Positions 43,906 to 55,109 of a stretch of 64,000 nucleotides of DNA are shown one piece after another. Each line of letters begins with the position of its first letter. The first letter of the stretch is position 1. A program made the position numbers and the translations under genes. The stretch comes from Nitrospirota bacterium (GTDB lineage Bacteria > Nitrospirota > UBA9217): the NCBI GenBank assembly GCA_963737155.1, contig CAVTRN010000002.1:2016001-2080000 (forward strand). Reading direction: 5' to 3'. The notes beneath the pieces were generated by a model, which did not search any database, had not been told where the DNA came from, and was given only the letters and a program-made list of their open reading frames with translations.

Positions 43906-45562
43906 CCTAACCCGGACAAGCCGGAACCAAGAGGTTTTATAAAAACCATGATACAATGAAGGCTCTACTCATTGTAGTCATGGAGGTTGCTATGATGATT
44001 CCTGAACGCTACCAAGATAAAATAGCCGGTTCACTATCCTGCTATGACCGCATGATCATGCAGGGCACGCTGCCCGGCTGGTGCTTCGATAAGGGGATGA
44101 CGGCATTCCTCTATGCCCGACAGATCAAGATTTTCGATTATGCCCAGTTCGCCAAAGCGCTTCAGGAAAAAGTCCGGGAGAACGCTGAGGGCCTCGCGAA
44201 TGAGAACAGCATTGAGATCGAGTTCATCCGCAAGCTGGGTGCGTTCCGTAAAGAGGCCCGGATCAAAGAAATCATCAAAGCGCGTGGCGAGCAACCCGGC
44301 CTTGTTCATATCTTCTCGGCCATGGAAGCCTGCACCAGCTACAAACCCTGGCACGACAAAAACACCGGCAAGACCTTTCTCAAGTATGATTCCGGAAAGT
44401 GTCTCCACTATTACTTCTACTTCATCGACAAGACGTTCGGCCTGTGCTACCTCCGCGTTCCCACCTGGGCACCGTTCCGGCTCCAGTTCTATATGAACGG
44501 CCACAACTGGCTGGCGGCGAAATTGGCAAAAAAGAAAATCCCCTATGTTCTTCGGGAGAACGCGTTTCTCTCTATCGATAATTTTCCCAAAGCCCAGGAG
44601 CTTTCTGACAGCATCAAGGTGTCGGACTTACACCATGCACTGGACAGATTCGCTAAACAATACTGCCCGGTCGGTAACGGGTACGGACTTACCTACCACT
44701 GGAGCACTATGCAGGTGGAATATGCCACCGACATCGTTTTCAAGAAGCAATCGGACCTGCACACGTTGTATGAGCAAATCGTTCGAACCGCCATTCACTC
44801 CGTGAAACCGGAGAATATCGCGACCTTTCTGGGTCGGAAGCTCCACGGCAATTATCAAGGCGAAATGGGCAACAACTTCAACACCCGAATTCAGGGAACA
44901 CGGATCAAGCACCATATGGGCGCTTCATCCATCAAGATGTACGACAAGTTCGGCAGCATCCTCCGGATTGAGACCACGACCAACGACGTCTCGGAGTTCA
45001 AGCACTATCGGGAAGTCCAGTCGCGGATCGGAGATCCTGTCCACAAGAACGCACCCATGAAGAAGAACATCTACAGCCTGTTTGACCTTACGGCGATCTT
45101 CAAGGCCTCGAACCGCCGTTATCTTGAGTTCATCTCCACGTTCGACGACCAAAGCGCGGGAATCAATAACCTTGATAAAATTTCAAAGACCGTGGAAACA
45201 GGCGACCGTTCCTACAAGGGCTTCAATCTCTTCAGCGACGATGATCTCAAACTGTTCGAGGTTCTCGCCCGCGGCGAGTTCAACATCAACGGACTTCAGA
45301 ATAAATCTCTACGAAAACAGCTGCCATCCGTGACGAGCAGTACCATGACGAGAATTCTGAAACGGCTTCACGTCCACGGCATTATTCGGAAAGTCGGCAA
45401 AACATACAAGTACTACGTTTCAAAACTCGGCAAGGCTGTTATCGCTGCGGGATTGACCATCCGAAATATGTCTGTAATCCCGCAACTGGCGCATGTTTAA
45501 TGCATATTCACCAAATTGTTCTACCCATTTTGAGAAGCTTTTGATTCTTTAGTTACTAATGT
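43906..45562 (+). mobile_element. Unclassified IS-like element, copy 1 (1,657 bp of shared sequence)
   Basis: Reverse complement of 53453-55109; flanks diverge outside these limits; CTAA at both junctions; no TIRs. Confidence 0.92.
43956..45500 (+). CDS. Putative transposase with Rep_trans-like motifs and C-terminal winged HTH (514 aa)
   Basis: Identical translation in both copies; QVEYATD, IKMYDK, LRIE; C-terminal NKSLRKQL...MTRILKRLHVHGIIRKVGKTYKYY. Confidence 0.75.
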   Translation: MKALLIVVMEVAMMIPERYQDKIAGSLSCYDRMIMQGTLPGWCFDKGMTAFLYARQIKIFDYAQFAKALQEKVRENAEGLANENSIEIEFIRKLGAFRKEARIKEIIKARGEQPGLVHIFSAMEACTSYKPWHDKNTGKTFLKYDSGKCLHYYFYFIDKTFGLCYLRVPTWAPFRLQFYMNGHNWLAAKLAKKKIPYVLRENAFLSIDNFPKAQELSDSIKVSDLHHALDRFAKQYCPVGNGYGLTYHWSTMQVEYATDIVFKKQSDLHTLYEQIVRTAIHSVKPENIATFLGRKLHGNYQGEMGNNFNTRIQGTRIKHHMGASSIKMYDKFGSILRIETTTNDVSEFKHYREVQSRIGDPVHKNAPMKKNIYSLFDLTAIFKASNRRYLEFISTFDDQSAGINNLDKISKTVETGDRSYKGFNLFSDDDLKLFEVLARGEFNINGLQNKSLRKQLPSVTSSTMTRILKRLHVHGIIRKVGKTYKYYVSKLGKAVIAAGLTIRNMSVIPQLAHV

Positions 45563-45618
45563 CTCTTCTCCTGGATAAAATGCTATGTTAAGTTATATCG
45601 AATTTAACCAGCAGGATT

Positions 45619-45774
45619 TCAATGGTGCTCATCATCGCCGTGTTCTTCATGATGTTCTTCATGATGATCATCATGGCCACCGTCCCCAGGTCCTCCATGG
45701 TCACCCCGCCACCAACAACCGTTGCTGGATACGAGCAACATTACACCGATTATCAATAGTCTAATTTTTTCCAC
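45619..45774 (-). CDS. His/Asp/Glu-rich micro-lipoprotein A (51 aa from GTG; ATG at 45776 if the A-run lost one base)
   Basis: Manual translation MEKIRLLIIGVMLLVSSNGCWWRGDHGGPGDGGHDDHHEEHHEEHGDDEHH; paralog at 46183-46338. Confidence 0.75.
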   Translation of the reverse strand: MEKIRLLIIGVMLLVSSNGCWWRGDHGGPGDGGHDDHHEEHHEEHGDDEHH

Positions 45775-46182
45775 ATAATATTGCCATCCATTGCTTTGTT
45801 TTTTTCTAGTCGAATGAATTTCCTACTGAAGTTGTGTCTTTATTTTTAAATAGATTCTTTTCAACAGGTGCCCCTTCTTCAAGGAGTTGAGTCGTGGCAC
45901 GTCATAAACTTACGCCTGTTTGCTAAATACGGAAAAACCACTTACCTTAATCTGTTGTCTTTTAACTGGATACGAAGCTACTAAGGTAAAAGGAAAATGG
46001 GGCTATTTTAAAGACTTATGATTTTCGAATATGGCAGCATCGCCGCAAGTGGCTTGTTTTACGGGCAGATCGTTGATCCCTCAGCGAAACGCCGCGTAAC
46101 TGCGTCTACCATATTTATTGTAACAGGTTGAGTCAAGTAAATGCCACTAACCTAATTGAACTTGACCGAAACCGGCCGCATT

Positions 46183-46338
46183 TTAATGGTGATCCCCATG
46201 CTCATCACCGCCGTGATCTTCATGATGTTCATCATGGTGGTGGTCGCCGCTCTCAGGTCCTCTATGGCAGCCCCAAAAACTATTGCTGGATACGACCAAC
46301 ATGACGCCGATTACCAATAGTTTAATTTTTTTCCTCAT
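46183..46338 (-). CDS. His/Asp/Glu-rich micro-lipoprotein B (51 aa)
   Basis: Manual translation MRKKIKLLVIGVMLVVSSNSFWGCHRGPESGDHHHDEHHEDHGGDEHGDHH. Confidence 0.8.
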   Translation of the reverse strand: MRKKIKLLVIGVMLVVSSNSFWGCHRGPESGDHHHDEHHEDHGGDEHGDHH

Positions 46339-46815
46339 AATATTGTCATCCATTCTTTGTTTCTGTCAGCTCGAAAAAACTTCTCTAAGGTCTCCTTTAG
46401 CCACCGCCACTGATTCATTAAAATACGTCAACCTTCTCCTGTAAGTCGCGAATCACAAACTCAACTTCAAGGCTTATATACCCATAGAATGCTGACAAAT
46501 AATGAACGAGAATAATCCATGTCAAACAATATGTTTGTAAATTAAAGTATAGCACAATATTCGTTATAAATTAATAGCATAGAACGATTTGTGTGTTGAT
46601 CTCAGTTTTCTGCATGCGCCCGATATTTGAATTACACCTTTGTTGAGTCTCTAACTTGAAACAACACGAACAGTGCTCTATACTTAAAATAAGGGAATGG
46701 ACAATAAATGTACGTAAGACTTATAATAAATCCACACTATAACGATTTACCATTCATTGATACAAAAGAACATCGGTTTGGTTTCTCCGTGAATTATTAA
46801 AAAAGTGGAGGTCTT

Positions 46816-47265
46816 ATGATTTTAAAGATTCTTGTACCAATAGACGGTTCAAAAGTGTCACGGAAGGCGGCAAAATATGCGGTCGAGCTCGCAAAACAGA
46901 CTGGCGCATCTTTGACGCTGCTTAGTGTTATCGATAACCGCTTCTTAGTCGGTCAGTCGGTTTCGGCTTCTGCTTCACCGACCCATTTAAAAGAGTCTGT
47001 CGCAGATTATCTAAAGCAGTCAGCACAATCCTCTACGGACGAAACAGCAAAGGTTTGCGAACGGAATCGTATTCAATACAAAGCGGTAATAAGGACAGGA
47101 CATCCTGTGGAAGAAATTGTAAACGAGGCAATTAAATCGAAGGCTGACCTGATTGTTATAGGCTCCCATGGCAAAAGCGCCCTTAAAGCGGCCGTGCTCG
47201 GTAGCATTACGTACGGCGTAATGCACAAGGATACGAAAATCCCTGTGCTCATCGTGAGGCGATGA
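46816..47265 (+). CDS. Universal stress protein (single domain)
   Basis: KILVPIDGS...GHPVEEIV...ADLIVIGSHG...VLGSIT...PVLIVR; GGAGG RBS. Confidence 0.93.
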   Translation: MILKILVPIDGSKVSRKAAKYAVELAKQTGASLTLLSVIDNRFLVGQSVSASASPTHLKESVADYLKQSAQSSTDETAKVCERNRIQYKAVIRTGHPVEEIVNEAIKSKADLIVIGSHGKSALKAAVLGSITYGVMHKDTKIPVLIVRR

Positions 47266-47414
47266 TTTACTCCCGATAGAGAAGCTCGTTCTCATTATTA
47301 AGTGAGCAGTAATTGGACTAAGGTGCTTATATTCTGTCTTTGTCGCCAGCCGACCTATTTCATATGTACTGACTACTGCATTGATGGTTTCGTAGAAGAC
47401 CTCTTTCCCAAACA

Positions 47415-47590
47415 GATGGGAAGCGTTAGCGATCAGACAGTGGGAAATATTCTAAAAGCGGCGCGGTTTGGTGCCCGCGCCCGAGCCGAAAAAAACCACC
47501 ACATGGAAAAAGTTCAGCCGGACTCATCGGGACCTGCTTGTAGCAATGGATTTCTTCACCGCGAATGTGTGGAAAAAGAGCCTGAATTTG
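47415..47590 (+). pseudogene. Internal remnant of an integrase-core transposase
   Basis: VSDQTVGNILK then (shifted) PAPEPKKTTTWKKFSRTHRDLLVAMDFFTANVW. Confidence 0.65.
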
Positions 47591-48197
47591 TCTGCTTCCA
47601 CGCATCACAGTGGAACAATGCGGGCCTTCCAACTCATTACAATAGAATACCTTTGAAATTTAATCTTACTTCCCAAAGCTTGCGTCTTATGCTTATTCCC
47701 CAGCATCACGGCCTTTGCTTCATTTGCCACACGGTATTTTACAACCATCTTCGTCGGGATCTGATCCCTACCCTGTTGCTGTGAACAACCCATACGGGTC
47801 TTGCTGCTGATCTGCGGTGGACCGTATAGCAAAATTCTAGCGACGAAGTCCTCGCTGTTTCTTATATTGATAATAAATATTTATTTTGATTTTTATCGTG
47901 ACTGTGATCCTTGCGAGATTACGACATGTTGGCGTGTTCAGTTAAGAGTTCCAGTCGTTCCAGTTTCCTTAGGACAAAAGCGGAAACTGTGCTAATCTCG
48001 TCTTGACCAATGAAGATGTTGACGGTATCATGGCTTCAAAAATGGTCCCAATAATTTATCACCCTAATCAGTTGAGACATAGGGACTTATTGAGCCAGGT
48101 CTCTGGAATCTTATTGGAACAGTATTTGTAGCATTATTTAATATGTGTTATATGTGAAGGCATATCACCAATGAGGAATTTAAAAAGAGGTAGAAAG

Positions 48198-48581
48198 ATG
48201 AAACATGTTTTAATAATGGTATGTTTGTTTTTCGTTATGACAGGATGTGCATTTGCAGAAACTCACAATTGGAAATTCATCTGTGCAGTTAAAATCAAAA
48301 CTAATAATGTATTTTATTATTATGATGCCAATAGTGTTGAGGTTAAGCGAATGCTCCGCGATGTCAATGTTTTGGCGAAAGATGAAAATGGGATATCAGA
48401 GAAACTAAATAAGATGGTTTTGTGGGAGATAAATTGTGAAACAAAGCAATTTAGAGGTTTAAATTTTGTTCACTATAACGATGACGGTAGTGTAAAATCT
48501 ATCTCTGATGAACCTTCAGAATTGATTAATATTGTTCCCAAGTCTATGATGGATTTATTACAAAATATTCTCTGTAAGTAA
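48198..48581 (+). CDS. Exported protein, surface-adhesin E-like
   Basis: Signal peptide, NWKF...FYYYDANSV...EINCETKQF...IVPKSMMDLLQNILCK; AT-rich. Confidence 0.65.
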   Translation: MKHVLIMVCLFFVMTGCAFAETHNWKFICAVKIKTNNVFYYYDANSVEVKRMLRDVNVLAKDENGISEKLNKMVLWEINCETKQFRGLNFVHYNDDGSVKSISDEPSELINIVPKSMMDLLQNILCK

Positions 48582-48650
48582 AGTATAATCCTGTAATATG
48601 AGAATCAGCAATATTGACCCATAGTGGCATTGCTGTTCAATTCTTTTTAT

Positions 48651-48828
48651 TAACACGGCTTTTGCAGTCGCTGTCTACGTTTCACGCATAGTGTCGCCAC
48701 GGTGCATTCAAAACTAGATTCCGGCTGATGACCAGGCTTGTCCGGGCGGAATTGACAAGCCGCTGAATCAGCCAAAAAGTTTTCATCTTTCTACTGTTTC
48801 TCCCTTCCCCAGGCTTATCCTGGCGCGA
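48651..48828 (-). ncRNA. Degenerate 5' (domain I) fragment of a second group II intron
   Basis: Minus strand TCGCGCCAGGATAAGCCTGGGGAAGGGAG...AGCCTGGTCATCAGCCGGAA...GAAACGTAGACAGCGACTGCAAAAGCCGTG resembles recalled bacterial intron 5' domains; no DV/DVI or RT nearby. Confidence 0.55.
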
Positions 48829-49075
48829 GATTAAAAACTTCAAATGAGAATATGCGCATTAACAACGAAGAAGAGAGTTAATCAGGTTGGTCTTGTGTTC
48901 CCTGTTTCTCCTCCCTTTCGGTTTGAGGAGTGCCCCATTTTTTAACAAATGTGGGATGTCTATGCCCCACACAGATCATACTATGTCACTCACACCTGTC
49001 AAGAATAAAACATTATGCGGCCCACCGCATAACATTTTTTTGTCTGACTTTGGTGTTCACCATATTCATCCTGCC

Positions 49076-50311
49076 TCATTTCTTCGATTCCAGGGCGTCG
49101 GTCTGTACCAATTGCGGAAATAATCGTATCCAGAGCGCCACGACGATAATTGTGCCAATGCCGCCGATCAGGACGGCAAAGACAGCGCCAAACCAGGCTG
49201 CAGTGATCCCAGACTCAAACTCTCCCAATTGGTTCGAGGTTCCGATGAACAACGAGTTAACAGCGCTTACCCGGCCCCGCATTTCGTCAGGCGTCTCGAT
49301 CTGAACCAGCGAGTGCCTGATGACTACGCTGACCACATCGGCGGCTCCAAGCACGGCAAGGGCGGCCAAGGACAGCAGGAAAGATGTCGATAGAGCGAAC
49401 ACGATGGTCGCGATGCCGAAAATCGCCACAGCATTGAACATGGTCTTGCCCACACGATGTCTGAGCGGACTGCGCGCCAGGAAAAGGGACATGGCGAGGG
49501 CACCCACTGCGGGTGCCGAACGAAGTAGGCCTAGCCCCCACGGTCCGGTCATCAGGATATCGCGCGCATAGATAGGCAAAAGGGCCGTAGCTCCGCCGAG
49601 AAGCACAGCAAAGAGGTCGAGGGATATGGCACCCAGAACCTCAGGACGGCTGCGGATGAAGGCGATGCCGGCGAACACCGATTTGATGCTCGCAGGTTCA
49701 CTCACGACGGGAGCGCGGCCGGGGCGGAGGAGACCAAGAAATACGCTCGCAGTCATGAACAGGACCCCTGCTACTGCATAGACCTCGGTCGGGCCTACCA
49801 TATACAATAGGCCACCGAGAGCCGGCCCGACAATAACCGCCGTCTGCATTGCCGACGCAGACCAAGCAACTGCTCGGGGAAAATACTCGCCGGTGACCAG
49901 TCCGGGTAGTAGCGACTGCATGGTAGGCCCTTCAAAAGCATGTACAGCGCCGACGACAAACATGATTACGAGGATGGTCTCCTTACTCTGCCAGCCAGCG
50001 GCACTTCCCCAGGCCATTGTGAAGGCGGTAAGGCCTTCAACGATCTGACAGATACGTGCAATGGTGCGGCGATCGTACCGATCTGCAGCGTGGCCCACGA
50101 CGAGCGTCAGCAGGAACATGGGCAGAAATTGCGCAAGCCCGACGAGACCCAGATATAGCGCACTGCCAGTAAGTGCGTAGATCTGCCAACCCACGGCTAC
50201 GGCTTGCATCTGGAAGGCGACCATCGTCGCTGTCCGAGCGAACCAAAATAGGATAAATTGACGTTGTCGCAGGATCGGTTGTGTTTCAACCTGATCGAAA
50301 GGAGAGGTCAT
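49076..50311 (-). CDS. MFS transporter (EntS/DHA3-like)
   Basis: About 12 hydrophobic segments; GHAADRYDRR motif A; TPDEMRGRVSAVNSLFIGTSNQLGEFESG. Confidence 0.92.
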   Translation of the reverse strand: MTSPFDQVETQPILRQRQFILFWFARTATMVAFQMQAVAVGWQIYALTGSALYLGLVGLAQFLPMFLLTLVVGHAADRYDRRTIARICQIVEGLTAFTMAWGSAAGWQSKETILVIMFVVGAVHAFEGPTMQSLLPGLVTGEYFPRAVAWSASAMQTAVIVGPALGGLLYMVGPTEVYAVAGVLFMTASVFLGLLRPGRAPVVSEPASIKSVFAGIAFIRSRPEVLGAISLDLFAVLLGGATALLPIYARDILMTGPWGLGLLRSAPAVGALAMSLFLARSPLRHRVGKTMFNAVAIFGIATIVFALSTSFLLSLAALAVLGAADVVSVVIRHSLVQIETPDEMRGRVSAVNSLFIGTSNQLGEFESGITAAWFGAVFAVLIGGIGTIIVVALWIRLFPQLVQTDALESKK

Positions 50312-50522
50312 GTCGTTATTTATAATATTCCTTGCAGGATACTACTACGAAGGTTTAATCATCTCTTGTTTCAAATAACTCCGTGATGCTTCTTTTCCCG
50401 ATGACATCTAGACCTCTTTCAAGGGGGACTTTTCTGATTCTGTCTGCACCGGTCAAATTCTTTGCGCATCTAACGAATTTCTGGTCATCTTCGGCCGTCT
50501 GGAGAATATGATAAATCCCGAG

Positions 50523-51053
50523 TTATCTCGTCCATGTCGTCGTTCTCCCGAGGAGATATATGCCGATGAAACCCCTTAAATTTAGTTGGCTAGGAGACAA
50601 CAGTGTCATCTGGCCGCTGTAAGTCTTTCCGTTGTCCGGGTTGTAAATCTTTCCATCCGTCCATGAGCCGGCACCGGCATACATGAAGTCGTAGAGAATC
50701 TGAAGACCAACGATAGGATATTTTCTCAGGTTCGGGTTCGGGTTGTTATGATCGAGTGCCGGCGTACCTGGCGTACCCTCCTTTGAATCAGCCGGATAAT
50801 TCGGGTCCCTAGACCAGACAATTTTGCCGCAGTACTTTACGCCGCATTTATAGATCATTATTTCTGCTTCTTTTCCCTGGGTATTCCACACTCCCAGAAT
50901 ACCATCCGAGCCGGCAGCATGGGCTGCTGCTGTCACACCCATCACCAGGACCACAAGAGATATGAATATCCGCTGACTCATTTTAAGCGTTGAAACAAGC
51001 ATTTTGAATTGTCTCCCATAAGTTGAAAATAGCATGAAGAAGGTTTCCTGCAT
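50523..51053 (-). CDS. DUF2147 domain exported protein (start probably downstream, MSQRIF)
   Basis: GVWNT...YCGKIVW...DHNNP.P.LR..PIVGLQIL...GKIYNPDNGKTY...LRGFIG...GRTTTWTR. Confidence 0.9.
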   Translation of the reverse strand: MQETFFMLFSTYGRQFKMLVSTLKMSQRIFISLVVLVMGVTAAAHAAGSDGILGVWNTQGKEAEIMIYKCGVKYCGKIVWSRDPNYPADSKEGTPGTPALDHNNPNPNLRKYPIVGLQILYDFMYAGAGSWTDGKIYNPDNGKTYSGQMTLLSPSQLNLRGFIGIYLLGRTTTWTR

Positions 51054-51600
51054 TCTCTCTCATTTCCGGGAATTCATCCCTGTAAACTGCAAATACAGAC
51101 GGGAAAGCGATATCCGCAACTGCGAGAAAATTACGGCTAAACCCGCAGACAGATATCTGCTTTAAAAGCCACGACCATAAACTAACCCGAATTCTTATTG
51201 ATCAGACGATAATTACCGAAGGATTATGCACAAGAGAGATCAATTTCAATCAGAAAGACATGATTTTCATTCCTGAAGGTCGTGACCGGGGAAATCCTCT
51301 CATTGGCGGCGAATAAAATATTTATAGTTCGTTTTTTAACTCCTCCCGCAAGAATTAAACGTGGTCCTTGACAGGTCTTTCGGCTTAGTGCCACTTACCC
51401 CTCTTCCCATCATCATATTACTTAAGACAGTAGCTTGTTGTGTTTCATTCCTTTCACGGTTGTGGAGCGGCGGGAGAATCTCACTCTTCTTCCCTGACAT
51501 CCTTGCAATTTTTTTTATTACGAAATTAGGATATTCCGGCACCTCTCAACATTAATAAAATTACACTATTTATCTCTGCCATCTGCATTTAATAACCTGC

Positions 51601-52587
51601 TTACTTCAGGAAATCTTCAAAGATATTTTTCCCATAATCAAGCACCTGGTAAAGTTGGTACATTTCACCCTTTCCAAAAGCGGGTTTTTTCTCTCGCCAT
51701 TTTTCCAGATGCCCTTCAGAACAAAAGAAGTTCATGAATGGGCAAAACGTCTTTGCGGTACATCCGCATTGTTCCCGGTTGCTGACGAATTCAACAACGC
51801 TTTCGGGAACACAGGATGCAATTTTGCAGTGCTTCACTTCGATCTTAATTTCCTTATCGCACTCAGGACAATGAGATCGAACAGAAATGTCCTCTCGAAG
51901 CATAAAATGGATACCTAGAGCGTCTGTTGCGCAGAGGGCATATACTTCATGCCCATCCTGAAAGACAACTTTATGGCGAGTTACTTTAGCAGAAAAAGGG
52001 TACGCAGAAATAATTTCGCCACCTTCCGTCGTTAGAATGTCTGCCCTATGCAGTTTTTCGACGATACGATAAGCTGATTCGAGGGATGGCAACATCATTA
52101 CCTCGGTGATCATTTTATCGGATGGGGGCTTGCCGGTCCTTCCGAACTCTTTCAGGATATATTTACGCGTCTCGTCTTCCGATTGACTCAAGCGCGCTTG
52201 CGCCACTCTTCCTTTTACCGTTTCCCCGATCAGGTCCATAAGACTTTTTGTAACTGTCTTTCTTTTAAAAGATGCGTCCCCCATTCCGCAATTTCCCTCC
52301 CTCATCGCTTTTCGAAGCGTATCAACTGATGGGACATTCGCGAGCCAGCCCGACTCGTCCTTGAACATCCTTCAGGAAAAGCCGGTGATGTCCTGCGGCT
52401 GCAATTCCTCTCCATCAAAAAAGACCGATGGCGATCCGCTGAGTTTCAGCTCTGCCGCTTTTTCATCGCTGATTCGATAAATACTTACATCAGCATGAAT
52501 CTTTTCGGCTTTTAAAGCAAGGGCAATATTCTCCTTTAACGTATCCTCGGAGCCGCATCCTTGTGATACGTAGCAGTCGATTTTCAT
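51601..52587 (-). CDS. Probable selenoprotein: thioredoxin-like domain (UGA=Sec at 52372-52374) fused to MerB-like organomercurial lyase, 328 aa
   Basis: The 71-aa and 255-aa ORFs are in frame and separated only by TGA-AGG. Read-through gives GSPSVF...GFS-U-RMFKDESG..ANVPSVDTLRKAM. MerB motifs SAYPFS, YALCATDALG, FCPFMNFF. Confidence 0.85.
52328..52369 (-). promoter_or_regulatory. Candidate bacterial SECIS hairpin
   Basis: After UGA: GAUG-uucaa-GGAC-GAGUC-(GGGCU)-GGCUC-gcgaau-GUCC-CAUC; the apical loop starts with G, 20 nt after UGA. Confidence 0.65.
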
Positions 52588-52925
52588 GCTCTCTCCATTT
52601 GCGTATTCAGTTCATAAAAGATTATTAACGTCGGATTCATGATGTAACGAGGCTGAAATATGAGCAAATCACGCCATTCTTAAGACCTCGGATGAGTATA
52701 TGCTTGGTGTTTTTAGTTGTCAACGAGTTCGATTACATTACATACATATAGAATCTTGTGTATGCCGTTATAATACCATGTTGCATCTCGCTATTTTCTG
52801 CCCAATTGATCATGTCAATATTAACTCAGAACCCACATAGAAAAAGAGGAACCCTGCAAATATCAGATGCCATAAACACTTTAGGGACGAATAGTTCGCG
52901 ACTCTGAGAGAGAACACGGACTAAT

Positions 52926-52954
52926 AAAGCCTGTCCAGAATCAGGACAGGCTTT
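52926..52954. terminator. Intrinsic terminator downstream of ssb
   Basis: AAAGCCTGTCC-agaatca-GGACAGGCTTT perfect stem, about 25 bp after the ssb stop. Confidence 0.8.
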
Positions 52955-52979
52955 TACGTGCACTCAATTATGTGACCAT

Positions 52980-53402
52980 TCAAAACGGTATTTCAGCATC
53001 ACCTGCCGGTACTTCAAATTCAGGCACCTGCTTTAGATCTGTGCTGGTACCTGTAGCCGAACTATTACCGTCCCTTTTGGGCATGAAGTTGACACTTTCC
53101 GCCACAACGTCTATTTTGCTTCGTTTTTGGCCGGTTTCTTTATCTTCCCACCGCCGCTGTTGCAAACGACCATCTATCATGACAGAATCGCCTCTATGAA
53201 GATACTGTCCACAATTGGTGGCTTGTTTGCCGAAGACAACGATATCAATGAAACTCACCTCTTCCTTCGTCTCCTCTCCCTGTTTGTACTTCCGGTTTAC
53301 TGCCAAACCGAAGTTCGCTACAGTAACACCGCTCGGGGTGTTCTTTACTTCCGGATCGCGTGTCAGGTTCCCCAGCAGGATAACTTTATTGAAGCTTGCC
53401 AT
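52980..53402 (-). CDS. ssb: Single-stranded DNA-binding protein
   Basis: MASFNKVILLGNLTRDPE...GRLQQRRWE...acidic tail DAEIPF; GGAGG RBS before ATG 53402. Confidence 0.96.
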   Translation of the reverse strand: MASFNKVILLGNLTRDPEVKNTPSGVTVANFGLAVNRKYKQGEETKEEVSFIDIVVFGKQATNCGQYLHRGDSVMIDGRLQQRRWEDKETGQKRSKIDVVAESVNFMPKRDGNSSATGTSTDLKQVPEFEVPAGDAEIPF

Positions 53403-53452
53403 AGGTTGAATCCTCCAATCATATTTTGTAACATGATCTGATGGGATCAATT

Positions 53453-55109
53453 ACATTAGTAACTAAAGAATCAAAAGCTTCTCAAAATGGGTAGAACAAT
53501 TTGGTGAATATGCATTAAACATGCGCCAGTTGCGGGATTACAGACATATTTCGGATGGTCAATCCCGCAGCGATAACAGCCTTGCCGAGTTTTGAAACGT
53601 AGTACTTGTATGTTTTTCCGACTTTCCGAATAATGCCGTGGACGTGAAGCCGTTTCAGAATTCTCGTCATGGTACTGCTCGTCACGGATGGCAGCTGTTT
53701 TCGTAGAGATTTATTCTGAAGTCCGTTGATGTTGAACTCGCCGCGGGCGAGAACCTCGAACAGTTTGAGATCATCGTCGCTGAAGAGATTGAAGCCCTTG
53801 TAGGAACGGTCGCCTGTTTCCACGGTCTTTGAAATTTTATCAAGGTTATTGATTCCCGCGCTTTGGTCGTCGAACGTGGAGATGAACTCAAGATAACGGC
53901 GGTTCGAGGCCTTGAAGATCGCCGTAAGGTCAAACAGGCTGTAGATGTTCTTCTTCATGGGTGCGTTCTTGTGGACAGGATCTCCGATCCGCGACTGGAC
54001 TTCCCGATAGTGCTTGAACTCCGAGACGTCGTTGGTCGTGGTCTCAATCCGGAGGATGCTGCCGAACTTGTCGTACATCTTGATGGATGAAGCGCCCATA
54101 TGGTGCTTGATCCGTGTTCCCTGAATTCGGGTGTTGAAGTTGTTGCCCATTTCGCCTTGATAATTGCCGTGGAGCTTCCGACCCAGAAAGGTCGCGATAT
54201 TCTCCGGTTTCACGGAGTGAATGGCGGTTCGAACGATTTGCTCATACAACGTGTGCAGGTCCGATTGCTTCTTGAAAACGATGTCGGTGGCATATTCCAC
54301 CTGCATAGTGCTCCAGTGGTAGGTAAGTCCGTACCCGTTACCGACCGGGCAGTATTGTTTAGCGAATCTGTCCAGTGCATGGTGTAAGTCCGACACCTTG
54401 ATGCTGTCAGAAAGCTCCTGGGCTTTGGGAAAATTATCGATAGAGAGAAACGCGTTCTCCCGAAGAACATAGGGGATTTTCTTTTTTGCCAATTTCGCCG
54501 CCAGCCAGTTGTGGCCGTTCATATAGAACTGGAGCCGGAACGGTGCCCAGGTGGGAACGCGGAGGTAGCACAGGCCGAACGTCTTGTCGATGAAGTAGAA
54601 GTAATAGTGGAGACACTTTCCGGAATCATACTTGAGAAAGGTCTTGCCGGTGTTTTTGTCGTGCCAGGGTTTGTAGCTGGTGCAGGCTTCCATGGCCGAG
54701 AAGATATGAACAAGGCCGGGTTGCTCGCCACGCGCTTTGATGATTTCTTTGATCCGGGCCTCTTTACGGAACGCACCCAGCTTGCGGATGAACTCGATCT
54801 CAATGCTGTTCTCATTCGCGAGGCCCTCAGCGTTCTCCCGGACTTTTTCCTGAAGCGCTTTGGCGAACTGGGCATAATCGAAAATCTTGATCTGTCGGGC
54901 ATAGAGGAATGCCGTCATCCCCTTATCGAAGCACCAGCCGGGCAGCGTGCCCTGCATGATCATGCGGTCATAGCAGGATAGTGAACCGGCTATTTTATCT
55001 TGGTAGCGTTCAGGAATCATCATAGCAACCTCCATGACTACAATGAGTAGAGCCTTCATTGTATCATGGTTTTTATAAAACCTCTTGGTTCCGGCTTGTC
55101 CGGGTTAGG
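53453..55109 (-). mobile_element. Unclassified IS-like element, copy 2 (inverted)
   Basis: Reverse complement of 43906-45562. Confidence 0.92.
53515..55059 (-). CDS. Putative transposase with Rep_trans-like motifs, identical to 43956-45500
   Basis: Identical 514-aa translation in the ORF track. Confidence 0.75.
   Translation of the reverse strand: MKALLIVVMEVAMMIPERYQDKIAGSLSCYDRMIMQGTLPGWCFDKGMTAFLYARQIKIFDYAQFAKALQEKVRENAEGLANENSIEIEFIRKLGAFRKEARIKEIIKARGEQPGLVHIFSAMEACTSYKPWHDKNTGKTFLKYDSGKCLHYYFYFIDKTFGLCYLRVPTWAPFRLQFYMNGHNWLAAKLAKKKIPYVLRENAFLSIDNFPKAQELSDSIKVSDLHHALDRFAKQYCPVGNGYGLTYHWSTMQVEYATDIVFKKQSDLHTLYEQIVRTAIHSVKPENIATFLGRKLHGNYQGEMGNNFNTRIQGTRIKHHMGASSIKMYDKFGSILRIETTTNDVSEFKHYREVQSRIGDPVHKNAPMKKNIYSLFDLTAIFKASNRRYLEFISTFDDQSAGINNLDKISKTVETGDRSYKGFNLFSDDDLKLFEVLARGEFNINGLQNKSLRKQLPSVTSSTMTRILKRLHVHGIIRKVGKTYKYYVSKLGKAVIAAGLTIRNMSVIPQLAHV

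Follow-up and report, generated by a model that had tools for sequence, protein, structure and literature searches.

A 64,000-nt stretch of the genome of a Nitrospirota bacterium (GenBank assembly GCA_963737155.1, contig CAVTRN010000002.1, positions 2,016,001 to 2,080,000 of the forward strand; hereafter the window) carries two inverted copies of a 1,649-bp element that holds a single gene. The element is mobile and recently active, and it probably represents an undescribed class of insertion sequence (IS), an autonomous element that moves one DNA strand by tyrosine nicking similar to that of the Rep_trans initiators. It belongs to a very large, unnamed IS family, and structure modelling suggests that the protein of its only gene, of about 502 amino acids (a.a.), has a two-lobed catalytic core resembling the TATA-binding protein (TBP), followed by a winged-helix tail. 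In a literature search, we found no published description of an IS with a Rep_trans-like or TBP-fold transposase. What is new here is the mapping of a CT^AA joint from target-derived variation, an empty site seen directly, a compensatory change in the arms of the left-end palindrome, and negative strand-bias and profile tests.

Two copies of the element in the window

An initial annotation, made from the sequence alone, had described two inverted copies of 1,657 bp with identical 514-a.a. proteins, unrelated flanks and the same junction letters, and all of these points were reproduced. The two copies are separated by 7,890 nt, as determined by a repeat search of the window. Their identity is complete for the protein and not quite so for the DNA, since a scripted comparison found a single mismatch (C/A, block position 1493), which is synonymous. 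On the left, both copies read ..CCTAA followed by CCCGGACAAGCCGG..., and on the right ...CTTTAGTTA followed by CTAATGT. The blocks, the inserted DNA and the open reading frames (ORFs) are as follows.

43906..45562, plus strand: copy 1, identity block shared with copy 2 (CCTAA...CTAATGT), 1,657 nt
53453..55109, minus strand: copy 2, identity block, reverse complement of copy 1, 1,657 nt
43909..45557, plus strand: copy 1, probable inserted DNA between the joints CCT^AA and ACT^AA (AACCCGG...GTTACT), 1,649 nt; the phase may move left by up to 2 nt
53458..55106, minus strand: copy 2, probable inserted DNA with the same joints, 1,649 nt
43956..45500, plus strand: copy 1, transposase ORF, 514 a.a. 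from the first ATG
53515..55059, minus strand: copy 2, transposase ORF, protein identical to that of copy 1

The protein-coding share of the element is 91%, which leaves non-coding ends of 83 and 57 nt, and there is no other gene inside the 1,649 nt. The likely start codon of the copy 1 ORF is the ATG at 43992 (Met13), because GGAGG lies 7 nt upstream of it and the homologues are 502–506 a.a. long. A sigma-70 promoter scan of the element returned 0 sites. The lack of terminal inverted repeats, already remarked in the initial annotation, was upheld: when the first 50 nt were compared with the reverse complement of the last 50 nt, the best arrangement matched 11 of 25 terminal positions, a value equalled by 1,093 of 2,000 shuffles.

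The joints lie at a CT-AA motif

The ends were defined by comparing the copies within each of nine other multi-copy genomes, which together with the seven copies of the host genome gave 35 copies in 10 genomes from several phyla. The loci examined numbered 87 (the 7 host copies and 80 others); 52 of them were left out of the junction counts, their ends not being defined by copy comparison. At the left junction, CCTAA followed by C/G-CCGG-N5-CCGG-AA was found in all 35 copies, and the strict left motif was present in 72 of the 87 loci. At the right junction, (A/C)CT was followed by AA in 32 of the 35 copies, by AG in two and by TA in one.

The bases beyond the right-hand junction proved informative. 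After the right CTAA, the seven host copies read TGT, TGG, TAG, TAT, TGT, AAA and TCC, so that the TGT seen in both window copies cannot be taken as general. Four copies in one acidobacterial genome agree throughout 1,673 nt, after which they read A, G, G and A; three copies in another genome agree throughout 1,725 nt and continue with A, T and A. Since the copies are otherwise without difference, the variable bases after the right-hand CT belong to the target flank, while the invariant AA on the left is part of the element. The fixed four-nucleotide CTAA core with cleavage after CTAA that had been proposed initially was therefore abandoned: copies that are otherwise identical differ in the two bases that follow the right-hand CT, and so the cut falls at or before CT^AA. 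As judged from these alignments, the inserted DNA would be AACCCGG...(A/C)CT and the target CCT^A(A), with no target duplication. The joint is confined to three bonds, and appears to be CCT^AA or a position at most two bonds to its left, an ambiguity due to the C-T present at each junction. Both CT-AA motifs lie on the coding strand, as direct repeats. The features of the ends are given below.

43906..43910, plus strand (copy 1) and 55105-55109, minus strand (copy 2): left junction motif CCTAA, with the proposed nick CCT^AA
45555..45559, plus strand (copy 1) and 53456-53460, minus strand (copy 2): right junction ACT^AA, where the element would end in ..GTTACT and AA would be target
43912..43924, plus strand (copy 1) and 55091-55103, minus strand (copy 2): CCGG-ACAAG-CCGG, a 4-bp hairpin or putative palindromic binding site beside the left joint
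43925..43983, plus strand: further predicted hairpins of the 5' leader, namely AACC/GGTT (43925-43936) and a stem of 14 bp (43946-43983) extending as far as the GGAGG that precedes Met13

Folded as single-stranded DNA, the left 90 nt gave three predicted hairpins (−16.4 kcal/mol, z = −4.3). The CCGG-N5-CCGG site is kept across phyla with a variable loop. A Brocadia subfamily, which misses the strict left motif, reads CCTAA-CC-CGA-ACGAG-TCG-G on the left and ..GATACT^AA on the right; the shift of the arms from CCGG/CCGG to CCGA/TCGG is a compensatory change. Many relatives have a palindrome resembling TGCCA-N4-TGGCA 25–40 nt from the right end.

Two sets of loci showed peculiarities of their own. 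On a Sedimentisphaerales chromosome, all three copies (L105-L107) lie in one repeated host sequence (..CTAATACCT^AATACCTCTCAA..), so that in this genome the element targets, or has spread with, another repeat. In two Lachnospiraceae genomes (L076 and L081), the element occupies apparently the same locus, both flanks being homologous, with a difference of 2 nt between their left junctions and of 1 nt between their right junctions.

The element is mobile and recently active

The host genome (4.84 Mb in two contigs) contains seven full copies, all with an identical intact ORF, in seven different flanks. Metagenome contigs join the element to the flanks of two of the other host copies, and contigs of runs X1 and X3 place the left end in flanks foreign to the host genome. 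An assembly artefact, a concern raised with the initial annotation, does not account for the duplication, given seven copies in seven flanks and metagenome contigs that carry the element in two of these and in other flanks. For this comparison, contigs rather than reads of four runs were aligned to the region, and contigs cannot reveal rare forms.

The empty sites reconstructed in the initial annotation fared differently for the two copies. That of copy 2, tagcCCTAATGTaat, was matched directly by a contig of run X1 (record 7, 366 nt), which reads eight letters of the right flank of copy 2, a single CCTAA and the left flank of copy 2, and so represents the unoccupied site. For copy 1, the comparison was limited to a paralogous site in the same genome, with a single CCTGA at the position of copy 1 (...ttaaCCTgATGTttc). 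Of 14 further genomes from the genus, four have the protein, mostly with stop codons. No clean empty sites were found in these 14 genomes for the window copies or for the pair at C2:2.14-2.16 Mb described below, the neighbouring intergenic DNA being too diverged or rearranged.

Decayed relics were also found. One is an internally deleted copy of 70% identity whose end is still ..TTACTAATG (L008, 1501-1855). Another, of about 105 nt, fuses left-end positions 1-82 to right-end positions 1627-1648 (L009, 1501-1605), and a third is a left-end remnant (L010, 1501-1576).

Other observations concern the arrangement of the copies in the host genome. A lone, perfect 21-nt left end (CCTAA, CCGG-N5-CCGG and AA) lies in intergenic DNA at C2:953019 on the minus strand, preceded by ..GTTACT and with the rest of the element absent around it; it could be an excision scar, the scar of an abortive insertion or a decoy site. 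A second inverted pair, about 10 kb apart, resembles the window pair (C2:2142476-2144130, minus strand, and 2154792-2156446, plus strand). Inverted pairs at distances of about 8–10 kb possibly arise from local hopping or from a recombination-prone architecture. A composite transposon with both inverted copies as the moving unit was considered and rejected, since under a one-strand mechanism the left ends lie on opposite strands; the second inverted pair could not move in this way either.

The transposase has a predicted TBP-like core with a conserved tyrosine

No Pfam or NCBIfam family covers residues 1-430 of the transposase. NCBIfam gave no family at E ≤ 1, so none of NCBI's models for IS-derived transposases matches, ISfinder being outside the scope of this analysis; the initial description of an IS without terminal inverted repeats, of a family that no tool names, is supported. 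Pfam reported only sub-threshold winged-helix matches at residues 450-497 (MarR, 13.1 bits against a cut-off of 24.6; HxlR, 14.4 bits against 20.8). A sequence search of the PDB, with the protein and with its profile, returned winged helix-turn-helix (wHTH) or chance matches only.

We assessed residue conservation in an alignment of 65 full-length homologues with 29–59% identity. D31, R32, G115, E124, Y153, Y155, G162, P173, N181, N202, E255, F262, Y329, R337 and E339 are invariant, and the nearly invariant residues include D259, K327 and K331. The three motifs that the initial annotation had singled out as equivalents of initiator motifs, QVEYATD (E255/D259), IKMYDK (K327/Y329/K331) and LRIE (R337/E339), all coincide with invariant or nearly invariant columns.

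An AlphaFold2 model of high confidence (pLDDT 94.6 over the full length, 95.7 over residues 14-425) predicts an antiparallel sheet in two lobes, accompanied by helices, and then a winged helix. The invariant polar residues are all on beta-strands of the model: K327-x-Y329-x-K331 on strand 324-331, R337-x-E339 on 335-342, E255 and D259 on 248-262, and D31 on 23-38. A sequence duplication behind the two lobes, which would make Y155 equivalent to Y329, was tried and rejected, as hhalign detected no internal repeat between residues 14-200 and 240-400. The modelled parts map to copy 1 as follows.

44022..45056, plus strand: predicted two-lobed beta-sheet core, residues 23-367, holding D31, R32, E124, Y153, Y155, E255, Y329, R337 and E339
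45237..45491, plus strand: predicted C-terminal winged helix-turn-helix, residues about 428-512

In a Foldseek search of BFVD, the model gave seven matches at E ≤ 1e-3, led by a giant-virus TBP (4.5e-6, probability 1.0); they also include an inovirus protein labelled REP (2.5e-4, probability 0.92). In the PDB, the best matches of the core, besides winged-helix proteins, were TATA-binding proteins (E = 0.026–0.13). The Rep_trans-like fold anticipated in the initial annotation is consistent with this model, which is TBP-like, the fold published for Rep_trans (as described in PMC13107129 and PMC4797284).

Two lines of evidence point to Rep_trans-like nicking

The Rep_trans family (PF02486), as compared here, comprises RepC/RepD of pT181/pC221, RepSTK1, RstA of CTXphi and the MOBT relaxases (NicK, Tn916 Orf20 and RelSt3). 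Its initiators are described as having a TBP-like sheet (PMC13107129; PMC4797284), with the catalytic tyrosine on a strand beside R189 and K193 and three carboxylates on separate strands (PMC4797284). The published motifs are N' (D), I (RxD), II, III (YxKxxE) and IV (W/LxRxE) (PMC5714925, section 10). In five Rep_trans proteins taken from genomes, D72, R168-x-D170-x-A172, Y238-x-K240-x-x-E243 and R260-x-E262 are invariant, and the IS protein presents D31, E255-x-A-x-D259, K327-x-Y329-x-K331 and R337-x-E339 in the same order. Both have a TBP-like curved beta-sheet, which for the IS protein is that of the model, and a separate DNA-binding module, and in both an invariant tyrosine sits on a strand between two basic residues, with R-x-E on the neighbouring strand and carboxylates on others.

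The DNA provides the second line. In Rep_trans origins and in MOBT origins of transfer, the nick is reported to fall at a conserved CT'AA within a hairpin rich in GC (PMC9371924). The joints of the element coincide with this motif beside a GC-rich inverted repeat, in accordance with the initial annotation, which had pointed to a pT181-family nick site containing CTAAT; the bond cut in the element is deduced from the joints. The two lines, one from the fold and its pattern of motifs and the other from the DNA joints, are independent and agree.

The element protein also differs from Rep_trans initiators. Its core is about twice as large, with two lobes in one chain, and the tyrosine-to-glutamate spacing is 10 residues, compared with 24 in the five Rep_trans proteins. 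In addition, it serves a 1.65-kb chromosomal element, not the replication or transfer of a replicon.

A parallel in domain order is the archaeal Rep-Arvir (DUF7845), reported to combine a Rep_trans-like domain with a MarR-like winged helix and described as recognisable by structure only (PMC13107129). The IS protein likewise has a predicted TBP-like catalytic domain followed by a MarR-like winged helix. For both, kinship to Rep_trans is structural only, as far as PMC13107129 describes it for Rep-Arvir, with Foldseek finding only wHTH proteins in the PDB, and TBPs and an inovirus Rep in BFVD. The element family is bacterial, multi-copy and transposable, whereas Rep-Arvir is a replicase of archaeal viruses and plasmids.

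Comparison with known insertion sequences

In its lack of terminal inverted repeats and of target duplication, the element resembles IS200/IS605 (HUH Y1) and IS91/ISCR (HUH Y2). Further similarities are insertion beside a fixed target of 4–5 nt, cleavage motifs that are direct on one strand, a hairpin by one end, and two ends that are functionally unequal. Its insertion on the 3' side of a fixed short sequence agrees with IS200/IS605 as well. It differs from both groups in its protein, which has no HUH motif and, in Pfam and NCBIfam, no Y1_Tnp or Y2 domain, and whose modelled fold is unrelated.

Like IS110/IS1111, the element has no terminal inverted repeats and inserts sequence-specifically, with a short core (here CT) that target and junctions have in common. 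In contrast to IS110/IS1111, it has no DEDD domain and only 83 and 57 nt of non-coding ends, and the same 5-nt target is used across phyla instead of an element-specific target of 10–14 nt.

An unnamed family spread over many phyla

A search of 5.8 billion proteins returned at least 8,000 relatives at E ≤ 1e-3 (8,000 of 8,000 scored candidates). The 120 relatives listed are 64–96% identical, many of them on contigs of 1.6–3 kb, and those named in the databases carry the label 'MarR family transcriptional regulator' or 'hypothetical protein'. Among 1.84 billion representatives of clusters at 50% identity, an exhaustive HMMER search found 7,081 at E ≤ 1e-3, 3,612 at E ≤ 1e-10 and 770 at E ≤ 1e-30. 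When one genome per species was scanned, at least 566 relatives emerged from at least 594 candidate stretches. At least 12 phyla appear in the record titles of the 80 loci kept: Bacillota, Acidobacteriota, Planctomycetota, Desulfobacterota/'delta proteobacteria', Pseudomonadota, Spirochaetota, Chloroflexota, Actinomycetota, Armatimonadota, Cloacimonadota, Rokuibacteriota and Caldithrix. The 65 homologues matched 34 Pfam families, and PF02486 is absent among the best 25 of them. In the ESM Atlas, the matches were only unnamed clusters of the same protein family.

In four records, the element makes up the whole contig (L098, L059, L063 and L085; 1,645–1,751 nt), starting with CCTAA and finishing with CTAA; the title of L098 gives a coverage of 1619x. 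Such contigs might stem from a high copy number or from an extrachromosomal form.

Evidence against one-strand nicking and alternative explanations

Several results weigh against a Rep_trans-like nickase. Membership of Rep_trans, the family to which the initial annotation had likened the protein, failed at the sequence and profile levels. PF02486 did not match the protein at E ≤ 1, and a six-frame search of the genome with this model gave 0 matches, with a positive B. subtilis control. The models of DUF7845 (PF25227; Haloferax volcanii control positive) and Phage_CRI (PF05144) likewise gave 0 matches in the genome at E ≤ 1. Hhalign of the homologue alignment against 6, and then about 110, Rep_trans/MOBT sequences gave probabilities of 0.1–0.2%, the templates being of low diversity (Neff 2.3–2.6). 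Because these three models and the profile–profile comparison all fail, we regard the protein as one that works like Rep_trans and is not a member of it. Foldseek against the PDB gave no match at E ≤ 1e-3, RepDE, RepSTK1 and any other Rep_trans chain are absent among the 50 matches listed, and the TM-scores of all fold matches are low (0.1–0.3). TBP-like sheets also occur in proteins that are not nucleases, and our comparison of active sites covers the order of the motifs and their positions on strands.

On the DNA side, the CT-AA motif stands beside a small hairpin (CCGG-N5-CCGG, 2 nt downstream) and not in its loop, which is where it lies in pT181 or in integrative and conjugative elements. 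The CCGG-N5-CCGG site is absent from the right end, and the right 90 nt have no significant fold (z = −0.2); as a difference from IS200/IS605 and IS91/ISCR, this end lacks a clear hairpin in the copy folded. Unlike in IS608-type members of IS200/IS605, there is no bias in replication direction: three copies are co-oriented and four opposite, as assigned from GC-skew replichores, a test of low power at n = 7. Finally, neither a circle junction nor an excision joint was seen in the contigs of the four metagenome runs, which cannot show rare forms.

Some of these results would fit a genuine IS with a new double-strand recombinase or transposase, in which the role of the TBP-like saddle is limited to binding or bending DNA and the shared CT is a crossover core, as in IS110-type or tyrosine-recombinase-like systems. 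The missing sequence and profile similarity to any Rep_trans relative, the fold matches that are mainly to TBPs, i.e. DNA binders, the 2–4 nt common to target and element ends, and the unbiased orientation of the copies all agree with such an enzyme. Nevertheless, the invariant tyrosine between two basic residues, with carboxylates on neighbouring strands, reproduces the Rep_trans active-site pattern as described in PMC4797284, and the shared sequence is exactly the Rep_trans nick motif reported in PMC9371924. Moreover, Pfam detected no DEDD, serine-recombinase or tyrosine-recombinase domain, and the non-coding ends are too short for an IS110-type guide RNA. We therefore consider a double-strand recombinase to be unlikely, while still the most serious competitor.

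The Rep-like fold and motifs would equally suit the replication initiator of a minimal rolling-circle replicon, a plasmid or satellite whose chromosomal copies were integrated by other means, and several assemblies do hold the element as a contig from CCTAA to CTAA, one of them with the 1619x coverage in its title. Short contigs bounded by element ends are, however, what assemblers produce from repeats. All seven host copies lie in the chromosome and have precise, identical ends, and the element carries no integrase gene. The relatives in a plasmid collection, labelled ArsR regulator or hypothetical, are confined to 13 large replicons of 271 kb to 1.95 Mb and absent from small plasmids, and no relative matched in a phage collection; an integrated replicon is thus improbable. 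Even less credible, to the point of being hardly tenable, is the explanation that the protein is a MarR/ArsR-type regulator and the repeats are ordinary duplications or were moved by another element. It draws on the weak winged-helix match at residues 450-500 and on the MarR or ArsR names in the source databases, a label that the initial annotation had correctly expected pipelines to derive from the wHTH tail. Yet no winged-helix match reaches its Pfam cut-off, the matches span about 10% of the protein, and the remaining ~430 residues are unrelated to regulators of ~100–150 a.a. Exact ends are common to copies in unrelated flanks and in many phyla, an empty site and new insertion sites are present in metagenome contigs, and no further gene lies within the 1,649 nt.

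Proposed mechanism

Returning to tyrosine nicking of one strand as the preferred explanation, its chemistry, the strand that moves, the circular form and copy-out as against cut-out are inferences, and the direct CT-AA repeats and the unequal ends are the grounds for the steps proposed here. Direct CT-AA repeats are a requirement of a single-strand nickase and not of a DDE enzyme. The left end, with nick motif and putative binding site, and the right end, with the nick motif only, resemble a rolling-circle origin and its terminator, or IS91 with its unequal ends. The role of nickase would fall to the protein described here, because its gene takes up 91% of the element and no other gene is available.

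Y329, within K327-x-Y329-x-K331, would be the nucleophile, with R337 and E339 on the next strand, and D31 and E255/D259, on other strands, would serve as metal ligands. The winged helix would bind CCGG-N5-CCGG at the left end, and the enzyme would nick the top strand at CCT^AA beside this site, the tyrosine becoming joined to the 5' AA. A second top-strand nick would be made at ACT^AA at the right end. The top strand, freed up to ACT^, would leave either through displacement by replication, a copy-out route like that of IS91, or through excision like that of IS200/IS605. It would then be closed to a circle with the junction ..GTTACT-AACCCGG.., and the circle would be inserted at a target CCT^A(A). 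Both active sites might be provided by the single two-lobed chain (Y329 and the invariant Y153/Y155), in place of the Rep dimer.

Surroundings of the window copies

The 7.9-kb segment between the copies encodes Usp, Adhesin_E-like, MFS, DUF2147, MerB and SSB proteins, and recombination between the two copies may have inverted it. The protein with the MerB (alkylmercury lyase) domain (51601-52368, minus strand) has an N-terminal extension of ~120 a.a. and lies beside the DUF2147, MFS, Adhesin_E-like and Usp genes. Copy 2 is situated directly upstream of ssb (52980-53450). To the right of copy 1, at window positions 45619-46338, two direct repeats 561 nt apart, of a 41-nt and a 59-nt family with 86–90% identity, span small His/Met-rich ORFs. 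Paralogous copies of these repeats occur at C2:1.52-1.56 Mb, and for this reason the flanks of copy 1 have paralogues.

Implications

On balance, we lean towards the view that the protein constitutes a further chemical class of prokaryotic transposase, a TBP-fold, Rep_trans-like tyrosine nickase that carries one DNA strand from CT^AA site to CT^AA site, and that its family is among the most abundant IS families to have escaped recognition. If this is true, one more class would join the short list of transposase chemistries. Non-HUH (Rep_trans) rolling-circle initiators would then also have been recruited as transposases, in parallel to the HUH enzymes (Rep to IS200, IS91 and Helitron) and with an unrelated fold. 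The compact single-protein system, with its simple 5-nt target and defined binding site, would be suited to biochemistry. Many 1.6-kb contig breaks in metagenome assemblies would be explained, and thousands of 'MarR/ArsR regulators' and 'hypothetical proteins' would have to be re-annotated as mobile DNA.

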